Part shown: positions 2,288 to 11,257 of the stretch, in pieces
Position numbering within the stretch: the stretch's first letter is position 1
Layout: each line of letters opens with the position of its first letter
Source of the DNA: a virus
Taxonomy: Duplodnaviria > Heunggongvirae > Uroviricota > Caudoviricetes
Length of the DNA: 11,257 nucleotides
IMG/VR virus record: IMGVR_UViG_2734482772_000014
Strand: one strand, 5' to 3'
Position numbers and translations under genes: made by a program
Notes under the pieces: model-generated
Seen by the model: only the letters and a program-made list of their open reading frames with translations
What the model was told of the DNA's origin: nothing
Databases searched by the model: none

Positions 2288-4729
2288 TCAATCATCACTC
2301 TGCCCGCTCTCCACACCGTAAGCACGGGGCATGAACTCCTCAGCCTTCTCGTTATAGCCAACGTTGGTTTGCGCTCTGCCGTTAATGCTTCTCGTCAGGT
2401 AGCTGGCTCGGTACTCTTTTGCTGCTGATTTTATGGCGCGTGAAAACTTATTGACGGAAAGCGGTTTACCCAAACCGTGATACTCCATAAACGCCAGATA
2501 AAGATGATAAAGATACGTCCTCGGCTCTGGCTGGCCTGCCCATGTACCTCCGCCCATCATCATGCCTTTGGGTTCGTTCATGAAAAAAAGCGCCGCACAC
2601 ATATCGACAACCGGATCCGTGCCGCGTTTAACCTCTAGCGCCTCCTGCGAATCGCGCTGCTCTAGTAATAGTTCCTTTGCTTTGTTCTGGTCGGAAAAGG
2701 TGGTTAGCAGGTGGCGGATAATCACCGGGATTTCTCGCCTGATTTTTGCTGTTAAATCCGGGTCTTTGTCTGCGTCTGATACCGGGTTATTAAACGGGAA
2801 TATCACGCGGCGGCGGGCAATGCCCCCGTTTCGCTCCGTGAATGTCATCGGCTCGTTATTGGTTGCCATAACAACGGCATTTATCACGGTTGTGAACTGC
2901 TTTTCATATTTCCCATCAATCTCTACCGGATCGCCGCCCGTAATGGCTTTAATCCCCGCACCCTCTCCAACATAGCGGGTCTGGTCAGGCATAATAATCA
3001 GGCTTTTTCCTACGAACTGCGCCCGTCCCCGTGCGGTGTCCAGCGTCATCATGCTACCGCTGGCGGTGTTGTGTTCACCTGCCAGCGTGGTTGCTATGCT
3101 GCTGAATACGGATTTTCCACTGCCGCCCTCGCCAGTTATCTCAATGAATAGCTGCCAGTCGTGACGCTTCGCCAGCACCATAAACAAGGCTGCTTTGATA
3201 CGCTCGGCCTTATGATGGTCGCCAGCCGTTGCATGATTCAGCCAACTGGTAAAATTGGGGGCGCTGGTGGTAATATTTTCCCCCGGCGCTGGCGGGGTGT
3301 AGGTGATCCCATTGTGGTTCATCAGCCAGTTACCCGGCGAATGGGCGGAAAACGTCTGCGTAGCGAGGTCATAAACGCCGTTATCAAAACCAATCAAATC
3401 CCCGCTCCGCTCACCAATTACCGGTATTTGCAGCTTCATGGTTGCGACAACCGATTTAATCCCCTTTTCGGTGTAGTGGGCTTCGTGCTCGTCGAAAATT
3501 GCCACCATAACCCTTTCTAATTCACTGTCTGGTAGCTTCTCCCATACGCCAGATTCGTAGCAGTAAACAGTGCCACTATCAGGGTTAACCGCCAACATAT
3601 CCCATCGAGATGAAAGCAACCGCGCTTTCTGGCTGGCTGCCATTTGTGCAATATCTCCGACTTCGGCTTTACGGCGGGATTTACCGCCCGCAATGGCCTG
3701 TAGTTGTGGTTTCACGGCTTCCCCCTGAATCTGGTACATCGAATCGTTAAACGCAGCCGTAGCGACTTCCAGCCCGTTTTGCTGGCGGTAGTCGTCCCAG
3801 TCGGCTTTGTAGTCTGTCGGCGGCAGCGCCACCCAGCCAGCCACGGATAAGGCGGCTTTCTCTGCGGCATCTTTGCCCGTGTTCGCCTGTTCGTCCTGTT
3901 GGTGGTCGTTATCTGCGGCAATGATAATTTGCGACTGCGGGTGTTTCCGGCGCATCACTTCGGCAACGGGTAGCAGGTTGCCCGCATCAATGGCGCACAC
4001 TGTCAGCGCGTCAGGGCGCATCAGGTGGACTGATAAAGTGGTTGCCAGCCCCTCGGCAATAATCACCGCCTGCGGCTGTTCCGGTGCGTTAACGGCGTGA
4101 TATGCCCCGCGCTTTGCTGAACCTGTCAGGAGTCGCTTCTCTCCCTGCGGTGTAATGGTTTGCGCTGCTGCCACTGCGCCGGATTCGTCCACCAGCTCCA
4201 GCAATAACGAACCATCCGGCATAACCGGATAGTTAAACCCGGTCAGCCCTTTTGATTGCAGGTAATCAGATTCTCCCTGTGTGGCACTCTGGCGCATTCC
4301 GGCATACAGACGGGCAAACGTAGCCCTTCGCTGCTCTGCATCCTCTGCTGCCTGTTTCTGGCGCTCCTGCTCACGCTGCTGGCGGTCAGCTTCCAGTTGC
4401 TCTCTTCTATGGCTCGCTGCCACCGGGTCGGTTTCCGCTGCCCGGTAATCAATACCCAGCACATCAGCGGCAAGCCTTGCCGCTTCTGTGGTGTCGCAGT
4501 TGTTCACCTTCTTAATCAGGTCTAAACCGTCACCAGCGCCACACTGATTGCAGATAAAGCTACCGCGCCCGTTGTCGTCGAATCTGAAACGGTCTTTTCC
4601 ACCACATGCAGGGCATGGAGAATGGCGGCGCGATGAATCAGGCACGTCGATAGACAATCCAGCCAGCACATAAGGCCAGCGCCCGGCGGCGGCACTGGTC
4701 ACTTCGCGGATAATGTCGATATTACGCAT
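2288..4729 (-). CDS. P4 alpha-like bifunctional primase-helicase (813 aa from ATG 4729)
   Basis: Zinc ribbon CPACGG...CNQCG; Toprim signatures (IIAEG..., IIIAADND); Walker A GEGGSGKS in the C-terminal helicase region. SD AGGGGG upstream of ATG 4729..4727, placed just after the stop of the 113-aa gene (4724..4722). Confidence 0.88.
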   Translation of the reverse strand: MRNIDIIREVTSAAAGRWPYVLAGLSIDVPDSSRRHSPCPACGGKDRFRFDDNGRGSFICNQCGAGDGLDLIKKVNNCDTTEAARLAADVLGIDYRAAETDPVAASHRREQLEADRQQREQERQKQAAEDAEQRRATFARLYAGMRQSATQGESDYLQSKGLTGFNYPVMPDGSLLLELVDESGAVAAAQTITPQGEKRLLTGSAKRGAYHAVNAPEQPQAVIIAEGLATTLSVHLMRPDALTVCAIDAGNLLPVAEVMRRKHPQSQIIIAADNDHQQDEQANTGKDAAEKAALSVAGWVALPPTDYKADWDDYRQQNGLEVATAAFNDSMYQIQGEAVKPQLQAIAGGKSRRKAEVGDIAQMAASQKARLLSSRWDMLAVNPDSGTVYCYESGVWEKLPDSELERVMVAIFDEHEAHYTEKGIKSVVATMKLQIPVIGERSGDLIGFDNGVYDLATQTFSAHSPGNWLMNHNGITYTPPAPGENITTSAPNFTSWLNHATAGDHHKAERIKAALFMVLAKRHDWQLFIEITGEGGSGKSVFSSIATTLAGEHNTASGSMMTLDTARGRAQFVGKSLIIMPDQTRYVGEGAGIKAITGGDPVEIDGKYEKQFTTVINAVVMATNNEPMTFTERNGGIARRRVIFPFNNPVSDADKDPDLTAKIRREIPVIIRHLLTTFSDQNKAKELLLEQRDSQEALEVKRGTDPVVDMCAALFFMNEPKGMMMGGGTWAGQPEPRTYLYHLYLAFMEYHGLGKPLSVNKFSRAIKSAAKEYRASYLTRSINGRAQTNVGYNEKAEEFMPRAYGVESGQSDD

Positions 4730-5959: not shown

Positions 5960-6270
5960 TTGCCCGCCCTCCCTTTGGCTTCTTTTTCACTGATTGAGCG
6001 CAAGAATGCGGCGTTTGCAGCGATATCGTTCAGCGCCCGCGCAAATTCTCCGATATGTCCCAGCATTGCGCCTAATCTGTACATATCAGCCTTAGCGATT
6101 TCCTCCGGGTAGCCATCGCTACCAGCCGCCCAGAACATGAGGCTACCAATGGCACTTACGCCCAGCATTAAATCATCCACGGCATCACTGGCGCGGCTCT
6201 CAATTCCGTTCAGATCATCAGGTGTACAACCATCAAATTTGCAGGACACTAAATCGTCATACATGCTCAT
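5956..6270 (-). CDS. Hypothetical protein (104 aa)
   Basis: ATGA overlap at 6270..6267. No recognised motif. Confidence 0.45.
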   Translation of the reverse strand: MSMYDDLVSCKFDGCTPDDLNGIESRASDAVDDLMLGVSAIGSLMFWAAGSDGYPEEIAKADMYRLGAMLGHIGEFARALNDIAANAAFLRSISEKEAKGRAGK

Positions 6271-6446
6271 GCCGCCACCTCACGAACGCGGGTAATCTGG
6301 ATGTGGGAAAGGCGTTCATTTCTGGCCTGATTTAGCGCCTCAGCTTTGGCGCTGATCGCGCTGCGGGCGTCAACGATATAAACGAACTCGACTAATTCGC
6401 CGCTCCGGGCGGTGGCGCATCCTGCAACACGGAAGTAATTAAGCAT
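6267..6446 (-). CDS. Hypothetical small protein (59 aa from ATG 6446)
   Basis: ATG 6446..6444 preceded by AGGGGG; overlaps the stop of the Icd-like gene by 8 nt (ATGCTTAA). The ORF track's longer version begins at a TTG. Confidence 0.4.
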   Translation of the reverse strand: MLNYFRVAGCATARSGELVEFVYIVDARSAISAKAEALNQARNERLSHIQITRVREVAA

Positions 6447-6631
6447 GTGCGCCCCCTGTGCGAATACGTCCGGCAAAAAAGCAAACGTGATCCCGCGCCA
6501 GAATGCGGCGGGCTTCCTGCTCGGTCTCTGCGGCGATATGGTGAATTTTGGCGGTAATTGTCGGGCAATCGCGGCGAACTGCGGCGATAATCCAGATAAA
6601 TTGCGGTTTTTGGGTAGGGGTAGTAGCCATT
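6439..6631 (-). CDS. Icd-like small protein (63 aa, MATTPTQKPQFIWIIAAVRR...)
   Basis: Strong SD AAGGAGG 7 nt upstream of ATG 6631..6629. Size and position (immediately after a C4/CI-type leader) match Icd of P1/P4-like elements. Family call from memory. Confidence 0.45.
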
Positions 6632-6654
6632 ATGGCAGCCTCCTTTGTGTTTAA

Positions 6655-6845
6655 GGAGTCACCGCATAAGGTTCCAATCTTAATAGTGGCGGTGACGTTA
6701 GCAGGGTTGGAACTACCGGACACAAAGGAAACCGGCCTACGCGAACGTAGCCCCACTAACGCCACCATAGATACAGTACGGGCAAGGCCGCTGATTTGAT
6801 GTGCGTGGTGATCGGACACAAAAAAAGACGCTTTCGGCGTCTGTG
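6655..6845 (-). ncRNA. Putative C4/CI-type antisense-RNA leader
   Basis: On the minus strand, two direct repeats UUUGUGUCCG(A/G)U (plus coords ~6811-6824 and ~6717-6730) are complementary to the Icd-like RBS ACACAAAGGAGG (plus 6641-6653). No protein-coding signal with an SD in this interval. Boundaries approximate. Confidence 0.3.
6819..6842 (-). terminator. Short hairpin + U7 (AGACGC-CGAAA-GCGUCU-UUUUUUU): terminator or leader structural element
   Basis: Minus-strand stem-loop followed by 7 U. The stem is only 6 bp, so it may instead be part of the antisense-RNA leader. Confidence 0.3.
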
Positions 6846-7039
6846 TCGCCCTTAGTGTGTTCGGGGTTCCAATCCCGGTTGCTGATTTTGCAGCAACGCT
6901 TGGACTATAACAGCTTTTCTCTGCTAGGTGGTCATACCAGATAAAACCGTAACCCTTTAAGAGTTTTTCCTGTGCACGGCTCACCATCTTTTTGTTGAGG
7001 GTAAGCGCCTCGCGTACTGGTAACGGAACTCCGGGCGCT

Positions 7040-7085
7040 GCGGTATCAATATCAGGTTTTATAAGGTTGTAAGGGTTAACATTTG
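7040..7085 (-). promoter_or_regulatory. Putative promoter/operator region with twin GTTAAC palindromes
   Basis: GTTAAC-ATTT-GTTAAC at 7065-7080, followed on the minus strand by TTACAA...TATAAA/TATTGAT candidate -35/-10 elements. Sits in the non-coding gap upstream of the antisense leader. Confidence 0.25.
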
Positions 7086-7129
7086 TTAACAGGCTAGCCA
7101 GATTAAAGGCTTCTTTCTGGGCGGCAGGT

Positions 7130-7312
7130 TCATTCAGTATCACGGCGCACCTCCACGAACTCATTAACGAATCTCTCCAAAGGCTGAACACATGGCGACT
7201 GATAGCCCTCGCGGTAAAAGGTCACTCGGTTATGCTCGACGCGCTCAACGGTCACTACAGCCCCGTGCGAATCCTTGTAACGGCTTCCCGGCATCGGATT
7301 GTGGTTACGCAT
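7130..7312 (-). CDS. DUF4222-like small protein (60 aa)
   Basis: SD GGAGG 6 nt upstream of ATG 7312..7310; start overlaps the antirepressor stop by 8 nt (ATGCGTAA). Pattern GSRYKDSHGAVVTV...VTFYREGY...C...LERFVNEF resembles DUF4222 from memory. Confidence 0.45.
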   Translation of the reverse strand: MRNHNPMPGSRYKDSHGAVVTVERVEHNRVTFYREGYQSPCVQPLERFVNEFVEVRRDTE

Positions 7313-8127: not shown

Positions 8128-8559
8128 TTATGCGGCGGTAAATGCGTCTGGGTAGAGGTTGAGAATGTCGGCTATTTCAGACTTACTAAGCCCCTGATAA
8201 CCCCCTGCGGCGGCGTTGCTGTTAACCAACTGGATAACTCGCATCACATCACCACGGCCCACAAATCTGTAGCGTAGGTGTGCGCCAATGCCATCGGGGT
8301 TCTTTTCGTCTATACGCTCAAGCTGAATATCAAGCCTGCGCTCTAACTCGCTGGCGTAGTTCCTTCCAGACGAAAGGCGGCAATAACGCAGAATATCGTT
8401 TTCTGTCCATCCCTCTATACCAGTACGCAGCATATAGACGCGGGCGCGGTGTTTCTTTGGGGTACGCCTAGGTACTTGTACCGGGCTGGTGGTCGGCGTA
8501 ATATCAGACGTGCGAATATCTGAGTTAGCCGCCTGTAATGGGCGGTTTTTCTTTTTCAT
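8128..8559 (-). CDS. Hypothetical basic protein (143 aa from ATG 8559), coupled to alpA
   Basis: ATG 8559..8557 overlaps the alpA stop (ATGA). Lys/Arg-rich N-terminus suggests nucleic-acid binding. Family not recognised. Confidence 0.5.
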   Translation of the reverse strand: MKKKNRPLQAANSDIRTSDITPTTSPVQVPRRTPKKHRARVYMLRTGIEGWTENDILRYCRLSSGRNYASELERRLDIQLERIDEKNPDGIGAHLRYRFVGRGDVMRVIQLVNSNAAAGGYQGLSKSEIADILNLYPDAFTAA

Positions 8560-8762
8560 CAAGCCACCTTTCCCCGACGTTCTGCCAGCCAGTTGTTAAT
8601 CTCTACCGCATCAAAGGCGGTAATCTTCTCGCCCAGCTTTACCGGACGTGGTAGTGAACCGTTTCTTACTTTACGGTCGATGGTGGATACACTAACGCCC
8701 AGTAATTCAGCCAGGCGGAAGCGTCTGATATAGCCTTTTGTAGGAATAGTGTCGGTGTTCAT
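8559..8762 (-). CDS. alpA: AlpA/Vis-family phage transcriptional regulator / excisionase-like (67 aa)
   Basis: Winged-HTH signature RLAELLGVSVSTIDRKVRNGSLPRPVKLGEKITAFDAVEINNWL typical of the AlpA family; position next to a P4-type integrase. Confidence 0.8.
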   Translation of the reverse strand: MNTDTIPTKGYIRRFRLAELLGVSVSTIDRKVRNGSLPRPVKLGEKITAFDAVEINNWLAERRGKVA

Positions 8763-8764
8763 GC

Positions 8765-8811
8765 TTCCCGTAACCTCTTAGCGATAGTTGTTGCTTCGTT
8801 ACGGGAGGAAG
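8765..8811 (-). promoter_or_regulatory. Inverted repeat spanning the alpA 5' UTR/RBS
   Basis: TTCCCGTAAC (8765-8774) and GTTACGGGAgGAA (8798-8811); on the minus strand the proximal arm covers the likely SD of alpA. Confidence 0.35.
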
Positions 8812-8828
8812 TATCTGTACATATATGA

Positions 8829-8860
8829 ACAATAAAAAGGCACAGTAATGATACTGTGCC
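8829..8860 (-). terminator. Rho-independent terminator for the 321-aa gene
   Basis: Minus strand: GGCACAGUA-UCAU-UACUGUGCC (perfect 9-bp stem) followed by UUUUUAUU; about 20 nt after the stop at 8877. Confidence 0.7.
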
Positions 8861-8876
8861 TGAATAGTTAGCTACT

Positions 8877-9842
8877 CTACCCCTTACCGTTGGCGGCAGC
8901 ACGTAAGTGTCTCAAAATCACATCTTCATTTGTGATTGCTAACGGTGGAATTTCGTCTTTATGAGCCACTATGCAATCCCGCCACTTCTCAGGGCTTATT
9001 TCTTTCTTTTTGCCACGGCATTCATCAGGATACTTTGACAAAAGATATATTGCAGATTTGAAAAGTTTTTCCCTGTTTTCAGCATGTCTCTCGGCATTAT
9101 GGTTGCTATTTTTTATTTCAGGTATTAGTTCCTGTTCTACCGCCATTTCGTATCGTTTTTTGCTCTTAGCTGCGTCAAAACTTCCATTAACCTTTGCGTC
9201 ATGAAGGTATTCTAAATCAGCCTTTGTTATATAAATGTTTTTATCTGACAGGCTACTCAGGTGAATTTGGGAACTTTGCATTTTGAATTTATATAGATCA
9301 CAATCAAATGTTGCTTCAAGTCGCACATATGGTTCTCCACATTCTTGTGAATGATAATGTCGTGTTGTTCTACCGCGTACACGCAACAATCCACATGCAA
9401 TTGATTTTCTTACAATAAAAGAGTTTTTGCCAATTTGTTCAAAAACATTTTTATTGTCGCTGTCTTCAACTGTCAGTGGTTTATGTGCATAAAATAGCTC
9501 ATAAGCACCGCTTTCAGATGCTGGGATATAAACTTCGTTGCTTGCGCTGGTAATAAGAAAAGGAAATGTAAACCTTACTTCTTCTGGGTACATAAGTAAT
9601 AAATCAGTTATAAAATTAGCATCTTTTTTGAAGTGGATGGTGGCATCAGATTCAATGAAATCAAGAAAGTCAGCATAGACATAAAAGTCTATATGTAGTC
9701 TATCTTTCCAATGCCATATATCATCAATTTCACAATTTAATAATTTTGATGCTCGCTCTATCGTGCAGTAGTCCAAAGGTGGAATACCTGATTCCTGCCA
9801 TAAATTTCTATGCACCACAGTTGTTTCATGAGAGTCGTTCAT
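8877..9842 (-). CDS. Orphan hypothetical protein (321 aa), AT-rich cargo between integrase and alpA
   Basis: SD AAGGTGA 7 nt upstream of ATG 9842..9840, stop TAG 8879..8877. Markedly AT-rich versus neighbours (by eye). No Walker A, HExxH or obvious hydrophobic TM stretch; C-terminal third is Lys/Glu-rich. Confidence 0.65.
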   Translation of the reverse strand: MNDSHETTVVHRNLWQESGIPPLDYCTIERASKLLNCEIDDIWHWKDRLHIDFYVYADFLDFIESDATIHFKKDANFITDLLLMYPEEVRFTFPFLITSASNEVYIPASESGAYELFYAHKPLTVEDSDNKNVFEQIGKNSFIVRKSIACGLLRVRGRTTRHYHSQECGEPYVRLEATFDCDLYKFKMQSSQIHLSSLSDKNIYITKADLEYLHDAKVNGSFDAAKSKKRYEMAVEQELIPEIKNSNHNAERHAENREKLFKSAIYLLSKYPDECRGKKKEISPEKWRDCIVAHKDEIPPLAITNEDVILRHLRAAANGKG

Positions 9843-9875
9843 TGCGTCACCTTTTACGCTGCGCCTTATTTTGTG

Positions 9876-9930
9876 ATTGAGCCAGGCGGTAAGGCTTCCC
9901 GCTTTTCGCCCCGTCGAGCTAGGCTCAATC
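9876..9930. repeat. Inverted repeat GATTGAGCC...GGCTCAATC in the int-cargo intergenic region
   Basis: 9-bp arms at 9876-9884 and 9922-9930 with a GC-rich ~37-bp spacer; no U-tract follows on the minus strand. Confidence 0.5.
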
Positions 9931-9937
9931 TATTCAG

Positions 9938-11197
9938 TTAGTTCGCCCTTCTGAGAGGCGTTACGTTGTAGTCTTTTCCGCTTTCCAGTGCCACCAGCAG
10001 ATCAGCCCACTGTGCCAGTGCTGCTTTACGCTCATCAAAATACTGATGGCGGTTATAAATCCCCTCTACGCCCTTAATGCGATGATTGAGGCATCGTTCC
10101 GCCACGACAGGATCAACACCCAACGCTGCTAAATGAGTACGTGCGGTGCGTCGGAAGTCGTGAATCGTGAAATTAGGCACATCCGGCATTTCGGCGCGAA
10201 CCTTAGCCAGTGCTACGGGCAAAGTGCTTTCCTGAATATGTGGGATCATTCTGTTTTGCATCTTCCTGGCTGGAAGCACCCATGCGCTATTACATGAAAA
10301 GGTGTGTAGCTCTCTCAACCATTCAACGGCTGGGGAAGGTAGAGGTATATCAATAGGGTCTCCGTTTTTGCTGCGTTCTTCCGGCAAATGCCATACCGCA
10401 CCATCTAAATCAAACTCTTCCCATCGTGCGGCGCATAACTCCATCTTACGAACGCATAGTGCCAGCAATAGCTTAAATGTCAGTTCGTTCTGGCGGCTGA
10501 ATCCTTTTGCGGTGCGCATAGCCTCGAATAGCCTGATAAGCTCATCGCGAGTTAGCCAACGGTCGCGGGAAACCTCTTTACCACCAGCATCAGATACTTC
10601 AAACGCTGAACAAGGGTTTATCTCCAGAGCGTGGCGTTTTATCCCGTAGTCAAAGATACGGCGTGTCCAGCGTAATACATCTGTTGCTATCGTTGGTGCT
10701 CCTCGGTCAACGATACCTTTCAACATGTCGTCAATGTGGCGTGGCTTAACGTCCTCTACCTTCATATGCCCAATGCAGGGGTTAATATCCTTATCAATTC
10801 TCCGGCGAAGGATATCGGGATGTTTCCATCTCGGAAGTATCTGGCGCTCGAAGTATTCGGAGGCCAGATCTGAAACACGCATGGCGTTTTTCTCAGCCTC
10901 CATTTTTGCCAGTGCTTCAGCTTTTCGTTCCTGTTTCTCTGCTGCTACGTCATAGCCAAGAGCAACTCTGGCTGACAGCTCTTTGGCTGTCTCTCTGGCC
11001 TTTGATAGTGATAGCTCGCTATACGAACCAATTAGCATGGCGCGGGACTTCCCTGCGAGTTTATAGCGGAATCTCCATGTGGGGGTTTTGTCGGCTTCAC
11101 GGTAACGTAGGTATAAACCGTTACCGTCTGCCCGCCCCTCGAATCGCTCTCCGCTCTTAATCCATGCGCGGATCTGCATGTCTGTTAGTTTTGGCAT
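9938..11197 (-). CDS. int: P4-type tyrosine integrase (419 aa from ATG 11197)
   Basis: N-terminus MPKLTD...GLYLRY...WRFRYKLAGK...LIGSY is characteristic of P4-family integrases; C-terminal HDFRRTARTHL (HxxR) and GIYNRHQYFDERK (catalytic Tyr region). The ORF stays open to the window edge (11257), but the MPKLTD start is the conserved one. Confidence 0.88.
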   Translation of the reverse strand: MPKLTDMQIRAWIKSGERFEGRADGNGLYLRYREADKTPTWRFRYKLAGKSRAMLIGSYSELSLSKARETAKELSARVALGYDVAAEKQERKAEALAKMEAEKNAMRVSDLASEYFERQILPRWKHPDILRRRIDKDINPCIGHMKVEDVKPRHIDDMLKGIVDRGAPTIATDVLRWTRRIFDYGIKRHALEINPCSAFEVSDAGGKEVSRDRWLTRDELIRLFEAMRTAKGFSRQNELTFKLLLALCVRKMELCAARWEEFDLDGAVWHLPEERSKNGDPIDIPLPSPAVEWLRELHTFSCNSAWVLPARKMQNRMIPHIQESTLPVALAKVRAEMPDVPNFTIHDFRRTARTHLAALGVDPVVAERCLNHRIKGVEGIYNRHQYFDERKAALAQWADLLVALESGKDYNVTPLRRAN

Positions 11198-11227
11198 TTT
11201 GCGAATATCCAAACTTTGAATAGGGGG

Positions 11228-11251
11228 TGTACCCAAAGCAATGTACCCAAA
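11228..11251. repeat. Direct repeats TGTACCCAAA x2 upstream of int
   Basis: Copies at 11228-11237 and 11242-11251 (14-bp period), within 50 bp of the int start. Candidate Int arm-type sites or int promoter operator. Confidence 0.4.
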
Positions 11252-11257
11252 CCTCAT

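Follow-up and report, generated by a model that had tools for sequence, protein, structure and literature searches.

The int-alpA motif (Rfam family RF02996) is a structured RNA that stems from the comparative-genomics survey of Weinberg et al. (2017; PMC5737381). Its members share a three-stem junction with the junction bases UA, GAAAA and CU, lie in the orientation of the integrase gene (int) upstream of them and have an alpA gene downstream. A functional study of the motif was not found in the literature searched, in which the name 'int-alpA' occurs only as a list entry and 'RF02996' nowhere. Here, we analyze a copy of this RNA in an 11,257-nucleotide (nt) stretch of Caudoviricetes DNA (IMG/VR record IMGVR_UViG_2734482772_000014; hereafter, the window). 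It is found on the minus strand, where a gap of 95 nt separates the int stop codon (TAA, 9938-9940) from the start codon (ATG, 9840-9842) of an open reading frame (ORF) of 321 amino acids (aa), referred to as the cargo gene. The best explanation as a whole, to which we assign a probability of roughly 60%, is that the RNA is a cis-acting leader in a common int-cargo transcript, which probably controls downstream translation. The window shares all of the above features with the family. It deviates in two respects: alpA is not adjacent, as the variable 321-aa gene and a terminator stand in between, and the linker after the closing stem P1 is A-rich, while that of the family is pyrimidine-rich. 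The pseudoknot, the hairpin presenting the Shine-Dalgarno (SD) sequence and the fixed start-codon spacing described below are placed beyond the Rfam covariance model or at its margin.

Several better-known systems resemble this locus in part. In the pseudoknot operator of Escherichia coli rpsO (S15) and in the two-conformer mRNA of lambda cIII, a hairpin loop pairs with the ribosome-binding region. The likeness is that a hairpin loop pairs downstream, at or beside the SD, and that alternative conformers would set the access of the 30S subunit. These operators each serve a particular gene and answer to a known protein or to RNase III, whereas here a conserved leader precedes a hypervariable regulated gene and a decoy site duplicates the complementarity of the SD zone. 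The lambda sib/tI retroregulator combines an RNase III hairpin of simple design with terminator activity, and sib loses its linkage to int upon integration. Both are structured RNAs directly downstream of a phage integrase gene with a post-transcriptional effect, known for sib and proposed here. In contrast to sib, the element in the window is a three-way junction with a pseudoknot, lacks terminator features, remains linked to int in the integrated state and is geared to a downstream start codon. Integron attC sites are likewise folded, strand-specific elements beside an integrase at the border of variable cargo, but they occur in arrays with one site per cassette, show little sequence conservation and act as single-stranded DNA; here, one copy per element, strong junction conservation and coupling to an SD and a start codon are found. 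Finally, recoding stimulators such as the pseudoknots of -1 frameshifting and read-through share the placement of a pseudoknot-containing structure 6-7 nt after the A-site codon. They differ from the present case, in which there is no slippery sequence and no conserved downstream frame, and the upstream genes belong to unrelated families.

Identity and Architecture of the RNA

The initial annotation of this locus reported a GC-rich inverted repeat between int and the cargo gene. A repeat search recovers it as a perfect 9-nt inverted repeat of GATTGAGCC (9875-9883) and GGCTCAATC (9922-9930), with the arms 38 nt apart; the right arm had been placed correctly, while the left arm had been put one base off, at 9876-9884. 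Of 2000 dinucleotide-preserving shuffles of 9843-9937, nine contain a perfect inverted repeat of at least 9 nt with a gap of at most 60 nt (P = 0.0045). The minus-strand RNA of the gap has a folding z-score of -2.81 (2 of 200 shuffles as good), compared to -1.32 for the plus strand. A cmscan search of the whole window gives a match to RF02996 at 9863-9929 on the minus strand, which spans model positions 1-71 of 71 and scores 60.6 bits (gathering score 35.8; E = 7.4e-11). The minimum free energy fold reproduces the stems P1, P2 and P3, and the junction bases agree with the upper-case Rfam consensus. The genomic context is that of the family as well, with the int stop 7 nt upstream, alpA (PF05930) downstream on the same strand and the 321-aa gene between them. 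Membership is thus supported by score, architecture and context, and the assignment to the int-alpA family is practically certain. The inverted repeat makes up helix P1, which closes the three-way junction of this copy. Its perfect arms and its rarity in shuffled sequence confirm that the repeat is genuine, and the Rfam match and the covariation of the arms in 71 distinct homologues are the decisive evidence. The initial annotation missed both the junction with its pseudoknot and the membership of a known family.

Read in the direction of int, the RNA starts after a 7-nt spacer, CUGAAUA (9931-9937), with the 5' arm of P1, GAUUGAGCC (9922-9930). The conserved junction bases UA (9920-9921) precede the P2 hairpin GCUC-GACG-GGGC (9908-9919), which is supported by the Rfam alignment and by its covariation. 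The junction J2/3, GAAAA (9903-9907), is upper-case in the Rfam consensus and near-invariant in the copies collected through their integrase (see below). It leads to the P3 hairpin GCGG ... CCGC (9886-9902; fold and Rfam alignment), the loop of which, GAAGCCUUA (9890-9898), is anti-SD-like. The junction CU (9884-9885) and the 3' arm of P1, GGCUCAAUC (9875-9883), close the core; both P1 arms are supported by the repeat search, the fold, the Rfam alignment and covariation. The tail consists of a linker ACAAAA (9869-9874), a site UAAGGC that is complementary to the P3 loop (site 1, 9863-9868) and a hairpin P4, GCGU-AAAAGGUG-ACGC (9844-9859), which holds the SD and a second loop-complementary site (site 2, AAGGU, 9849-9853) in its loop. 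The start codon follows 32 nt after P1.

Other classes of elements do not account for the region. At E <= 1, it matches int-alpA only in Rfam and no known riboswitch or self-cleaving ribozyme class; this includes the ZTP riboswitch, which shares a CCGCCUGG-like sequence. A hammerhead core (CUGANGA / GAAA) is absent, as the junction has no CUGANGA. The many dispersed copies per genome typical of repetitive extragenic palindromes are not observed either, with a median of one and a maximum of two places per E. coli genome. A blastn search of a phage collection with the leader gave no match.

Conservation of the Core Helices

A degenerate pattern of the junction and P3 bases was scanned over one genome per species, yielding 100 loci. 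Together with the window and two E. coli loci, 103 copies were examined, 78 of which have a P1 of at least 6 base pairs (bp), while several further copies have a P1 with one mismatch. They derive mainly from beta- and gammaproteobacteria, and some from metagenome bins assigned to other phyla. The Rfam threshold is passed by 13 of 16 diverse loci collected with the pattern; four copies tested from such bins pass it. Among 71 distinct core sequences, standard pairs occupy 90.9% of the alignment cells. The covariation score is 0.555, compared to 0.132 after shuffling (0 of 500 as high) and no more than 0.165 with the partners shifted by 1-3 columns. For P1, both sides change in seven of the nine pairs, with up to six pair types. 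P1 columns 3-9 comprise at least 28 G-U cells and at most four non-pairs, and the fold is therefore attributed to the int-sense (minus) strand.

The same exchange of both arms is visible within a single integration site. Next to yicC in E. coli, three unrelated and fully complementary P1 helices occur: GAUUGAGCC/GGCUCAAUC in the window, GACCGGAAC/GUUCCGGUC in loci L104 (2493-2548) and L189 (1994-2050), and ACCGGGG/CCCCGGU in locus L188 (1990-2047). The last of these also carries the junction AUAG in place of CUAG.

A second sample was drawn via the integrase protein and comprises 51 IMG/VR loci encoding relatives of the window integrase, 23 of which carry the motif directly after int. In this sample, the first P2 pair varies from G-C to A-U or G-U, while the junction bases UA, GAAAA and CU stay conserved. 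The P3 stem reads CCCG/CGGG in the distant member L236. Two copies are unusual in other ways. Locus L175 (3671-3754) is atypical and scores below the Rfam threshold, with a P3 loop UGGUU and a tail in which three AACCA copies precede the start codon. At locus L086, a tRNA-like fragment (GCGCCTGTAGCTCAGTGGATAGAGCG; around 6000-6050, minus strand) follows the motif instead of an ORF. ARAGORN did not find a complete tRNA there, and the fragment may be the remnant of an attachment site.

A Conserved Tail with a Pseudoknot, an SD Hairpin and a Start Codon

Conservation continues past P1. In all clades, the P3 loop ends in 5-8 nt that have a complementary site located 5-9 nt behind P1; the window has GCCUUA (9890-9895) in the loop and UAAGGC (9863-9868) in the tail. 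The two strands covary, with the loop/site 1 pairs CCUUCA/UGAAGG, UCCGAA/UUCGGA, UCUCAC/GUGAGA, ACCUAC/GUAGGU, AUCAUUAA/UUAAUGAU, UCAUCG/CGAUGA and others. The covarying sequences that do not resemble an SD include UUAAUGAU, CGAUGAU and UUCGGA, which at times are duplicated at both sites, and further non-SD pair types occur in an independent set of viral contigs. Since the register of the tails in the MAFFT alignment (A1) is too poor to count pairs column by column in the pseudoknot and P4, register-free permutation tests were used for the pairing of the loop with site 1 and with the SD. The helix between loop and tail has a mean length of 5.8 bp, compared to 4.5 bp with permuted tails (48 distinct loops, one representative each; 0 of 5000 permutations as high). 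Site 1 also falls within the tail over which the Rfam model extends.

The second part of the tail is the hairpin P4, which has at least 3 bp in 97% of 66 tails (mean z = -2.05) and carries the SD in its loop or 3' strand. The P3 loop is complementary to this SD zone too, with a mean pairing energy of -6.7 kcal/mol against -5.1 kcal/mol for permuted combinations (68 loops; 0 of 5000). On average, pairing with site 1 is slightly more stable than pairing with the SD site (-7.5 versus -6.7 kcal/mol). A start codon is located 25-41 nt downstream of P1 in the majority of the 78 copies and in 48 of 55 copies of the viral set. At the level of sequence, the comparison thus establishes the stems P1, P2 and P3, the pseudoknot between the loop and site 1, the SD-presenting P4 and the start codon around 32 nt after P1. 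The fixed position relative to the SD and the start codon, combined with the potential to pair with the SD, is what a cis-regulatory leader would display, and from these properties we infer the regulatory effect itself.

The anti-SD-like loop might also serve a different purpose. A trans-acting small RNA (sRNA), released by a promoter of its own or by processing of the int 3' untranslated region (UTR), could pair through this loop with the SD of other mRNAs. The exposed P3 loop often resembles the 16S anti-SD sequence (e.g., UCACCUC in L236) and could pair with many SD regions, sRNAs derived from 3' UTRs are an established class, and Rfam types the family as 'Gene; sRNA' and not as cis-regulatory. 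Yet, the consensus scan of the window detects neither a promoter-like site upstream nor a terminator after P1, which would provide such an sRNA with its own promoter and a defined 3' end, and a U-rich tail is inconsistent in the family. Furthermore, the conserved region extends beyond P1 and takes in the covarying partner of the pseudoknot, the SD hairpin and, at a fixed spacing, the start codon, and a loop that covaries with its own downstream sites points to a partner in cis. We therefore consider a trans-acting sRNA decidedly unlikely.

The same tail bears on transcription termination. The initial annotation pointed out that no U-tract follows the repeat and that efficient termination is hence not to be expected, which the present data bear out. 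On the minus strand, the 3' arm of P1 is directly followed by ACAAAAUAAGG, without a U-run, and the terminator scan of the window yields nothing in this tail (ACAAAAUA). Across the family, the linker is G-poor and pyrimidine-rich, with at least five U in the 8 nt after P1 in only 19 of the 78 copies, so that the window does not stand out by lacking a U-run. An intrinsic terminator or attenuator ending int transcripts could still be suspected from the GC-containing stem P1, the U-rich linker of those 19 members and the weakly U-rich tail of the Rfam consensus. However, P1 closes a branched interior of 38 nt and not a simple hairpin, a G-poor and pyrimidine-rich linker without a U-run is as expected of a pseudoknot linker, and the cargo gene has a terminator of its own (8838-8861). 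This option is very improbable, and an intrinsic terminator was rejected as a candidate on the negative scan and the inconsistent U-content of the linkers.

The Upstream Gene and Transcription of the Cargo

The motif is located directly downstream of an integrase gene in 31 of 59 loci. In the remaining ones, one to four small genes, some of them coding for helix-turn-helix (HTH) proteins, stand between the motif and an integrase gene further upstream. Among 127 unique genome and IMG/VR copies, an ORF on the same strand ends within 300 nt upstream of the motif in 122. The distance between its stop codon and P1 peaks sharply at 6-7 nt; it amounts to 4-12 nt in 67 copies and is shorter than 4 nt in one, with hardly any below 5 nt. 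This position may keep P1 just outside a terminating ribosome, which would then just touch the base of the structure.

Such a narrow gap raises the possibility that the structure serves the upstream gene, either by blocking exonucleases at the 3' end of the int (or another upstream) mRNA or by standing at the mRNA entrance of the ribosome during termination (pausing, recoding or termination-reinitiation). The spacers of recoding pseudoknots measure 5-9 nt, matching the gap observed here, and the present structure includes a pseudoknot. Nevertheless, the upstream gene varies (integrases, HTH proteins and others), while the downstream spacing and the SD hairpin are constant, and nothing stops transcription at the motif, which makes it not obviously a 3' end. 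The UAG at the junction is found in all three frames relative to the upstream ORF (19, 40 and 29 copies), so there is no conserved read-through frame. On this ground, a read-through or frameshift design is not supported, and a function on behalf of the upstream gene in general appears rather unlikely.

The constrained stop also matters for how the cargo gene is transcribed. The initial annotation offered two options, co-transcription with int or a promoter inside the 3' end of int. A consensus scan did not find a sigma-70-like site on the minus strand between 9843 and 10400, and the terminator scan found no terminator-like site after P1 in the window. Closely related elements without the motif (loci L105 and L106, at the same yicC site) have an int-cargo spacer of only 18 nt. 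As there is no promoter- or terminator-like site at the junction, the spacer is this short in the motif-less relatives and the upstream stop is constrained, co-transcription of the cargo gene with int is the most economical reading.

The Mobile Element and Its Variable Gene Slot

The host element is a satellite-like mobile element that is integrated next to yicC in E. coli. The same 11 kb are found with 100% identity beside yicC in E. coli strain 165; the 95 nt between int and the cargo gene are also identical in E. coli 042. The gene order is int, motif, variable gene, alpA, antA, ash/C4 RNA and primase, and the neighbors of the motif comprise the P4-type tyrosine integrase, the 321-aa ORF, an AlpA-family gene, a 144-aa ORF, an AntA-family gene, an Ash-family ORF and a primase-helicase. 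In IMG/VR, 1.2-1.7 kb separate the motif from the contig end, and the contigs often measure 10-18 kb, in line with elements of satellite size. Out of 5426 complete E. coli genomes, 203 carry the leader, as a rule once each, always at the integrase junction and without annotation.

The gene behind the leader is exchanged between these elements. All E. coli genomes that carry the cargo gene of the window also carry the leader (77 of 77), and none has this cargo without the repeat. In another 78 E. coli genomes, the match to the query 8806-9937 is confined to 9838-9937, after which the sequences diverge; the homology break is therefore placed two bases past the ATG (9838/9839). Homology resumes at 8805, 43 nt ahead of alpA. 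Given these breaks on both sides, the exchanged block (8806-9837, from blastn breakpoints against loci L002 and L003) comprises the cargo ORF (8877-9842) from just after its ATG and the terminator of the cargo gene, which the terminator scan detected behind the cargo stop codon as a terminator-like hairpin plus U-run. Each cargo allele appears to bring its own terminator. In the motif-less elements L105 (2477-2494) and L106, the int stop TGA is followed by 18 nt with GAGAGGAAAG, a plain SD, and then by the ATG of a 316-aa cargo homologue. Their homology to the window already stops 12-19 nt before the int stop, inside the 3' end of int.

These breakpoints bear on the suggestion of the initial annotation that the repeat is a recombination scar marking the cargo-insertion junction. 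One part of it holds, since the repeat does coincide with the left edge of the variable block. The scar itself does not, as the sequence is a conserved, covarying and strand-specific RNA fold that is present in many taxa and already recorded in Rfam. More generally, a feature at the DNA level, whether a scar, an attC-like cassette site or a protein-binding palindrome marking cargo insertion, would be in line with the block edge at the leader end (9838/9839), and motif searches can also pick up single-stranded DNA motifs such as attC (PMC5737381). Against this, G-U pairs make the fold strand-specific, and the fixed spacing to the SD and start codon and the complementarity between loop and SD are features of translation. 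The breakpoint in L105 and L106 lies inside int and not at the motif, the attachment site of the element must be at the other end of int, beside yicC, and homologous exchange anchored in the conserved flanks accounts for the breakpoints, with no need for a dedicated site. A covariance model of the motif (R1) finds exactly one copy per locus in 99 loci and no arrays; this count, along with the P4-type integrase with its arm-binding domain, led us to reject an attC-like cassette array. A DNA-level role is thus most improbable, and both the terminator and the DNA-site or scar explanations are poorly compatible with the data.

The gene directly downstream of the motif almost always encodes a protein of 170-460 aa, and these proteins are diverse. 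Family assignments are nearly absent among 61 of them, apart from three DUF6387 proteins and one T5orf172 protein; AlpA was not among them. The enterobacterial cargo proteins form one family, in which the C-terminal 75-120 aa are conserved (NREKLFKSAIYLLSKYPDECRG...), while the N-terminal and middle parts are hypervariable. An N-terminal motif, IPP..Y..L.RAA.LL....DDL, resembles by eye the helices of excisionase/HTH_17 domains. For the 321-aa cargo protein of the window, no match was found in Pfam, PHROG or PADLOC, and a profile search of the PDB gave nothing significant. Neither did Foldseek searches of its AlphaFold2 model (predicted local distance difference test, pLDDT, 72) against PDB and BFVD.

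With regard to the remaining genes, the integrase gene (9938-11197, minus strand) encodes a P4-type protein with arm-binding, central and catalytic domains (PF13356, PF22022 and PF00589), annotated by RefSeq in strain 165 with 419 aa. The mechanical ORF (9938-11257, minus strand) is longer, at 439 aa, as it starts at the window edge, whereas the RefSeq integrase starts from 11197. The alpA-family gene (8559-8762, minus strand; PF05930) encodes 67 aa. Further Rfam matches on the minus strand are a C4 antisense RNA (6685-6772; 82 bits), isrK (6821-6897; 75 bits) and the c4 a1/b1 targets (6858-6910; 54 bits). All of them are located within or beside the Ash-family ORF (6439-7191), and they form an antisense immunity module of the P1/P7/P4 type. 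A sub-threshold match to aceE-II inside the primase gene (2759-2946, minus strand; 20.9 bits against a gathering score of 100) is most likely due to chance.

A Leader Model for the int-alpA RNA

In the explanation that we favor, the motif would be a self-contained leader of the int-cargo co-transcript that works in cis and sets or switches the initiation of translation for any gene in the variable slot. That this action is specifically translational is somewhat more probable than not. A more tentative step concerns the P3 loop. As the loop is complementary to both sites, two mutually exclusive partners, and hence a switch or buffer, are suggested: pairing with the decoy site 1 would leave the SD free, whereas pairing with the SD in the P4 loop would occlude it. 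The position of the upstream stop, just outside P1, could be maintained because it lets terminating ribosomes abut the fold. We regard the two-state loop switch as possible, with the odds somewhat against it.

Several observations weigh against this explanation. The motif is dispensable, as the closely related elements L105 and L106 do without it at the same yicC site and only 23 of the 51 IMG/VR loci with a related integrase possess it. The Rfam type of the family speaks for an sRNA. Because the collecting pattern fixes the junction and P3 bases in most of the sequence set, their conservation is partly by construction, although the integrase-based sample mitigates this point. The complementarity between the loop and the SD is partly due to the purine-rich nature of both sites, and the second site is poor in members such as L006, L066 and L070. 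Nearest-neighbor folding, in which pseudoknots are outside the model, gave no clear change in SD accessibility when the 5' arm of P1 was blocked. Finally, we infer co-transcription, folding in vivo and the translational effect alike from sequence.

Implications

The RNA as an object is already known, and its finding as such is not new. The pseudoknot was perhaps already drawn by the original authors, because the Rfam model includes the site 1 tail. The leader model, the dual-site complementarity of the loop and the link to a hypervariable gene slot may be new. The comparison thereby adds a concrete and testable model for a functionally orphan, catalogued RNA family, in which the leader is conserved ahead of a gene slot whose content swaps between otherwise near-identical mobile elements. 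If confirmed, the model would explain how one conserved control module can govern the expression of the ever-changing accessory genes of satellite-like elements, and it would provide a compact natural 'expression adaptor' for synthetic biology. In practical terms, the 95-bp gap between int and the next gene, which occurs in around 4% of E. coli genomes, should be annotated with this noncoding RNA feature.

In its most far-reaching form, which we put forward as a speculative proposal, the int-alpA RNA would be a portable translational switch, built as a compact three-way junction, and not an sRNA. Its anti-SD-like loop would toggle between a decoy site (a pseudoknot, ON) and an SD in a hairpin loop (a kissing complex, OFF), and its readout would be coupled to ribosomes that terminate 6-7 nt upstream. 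The invariant junction bases UA, GAAAA and CU could form a pocket for a hypothetical ligand or host factor. The switch would gate a slot for a hypervariable accessory gene, possibly with an anti-phage or regulatory function, in satellite-like elements of several bacterial phyla.

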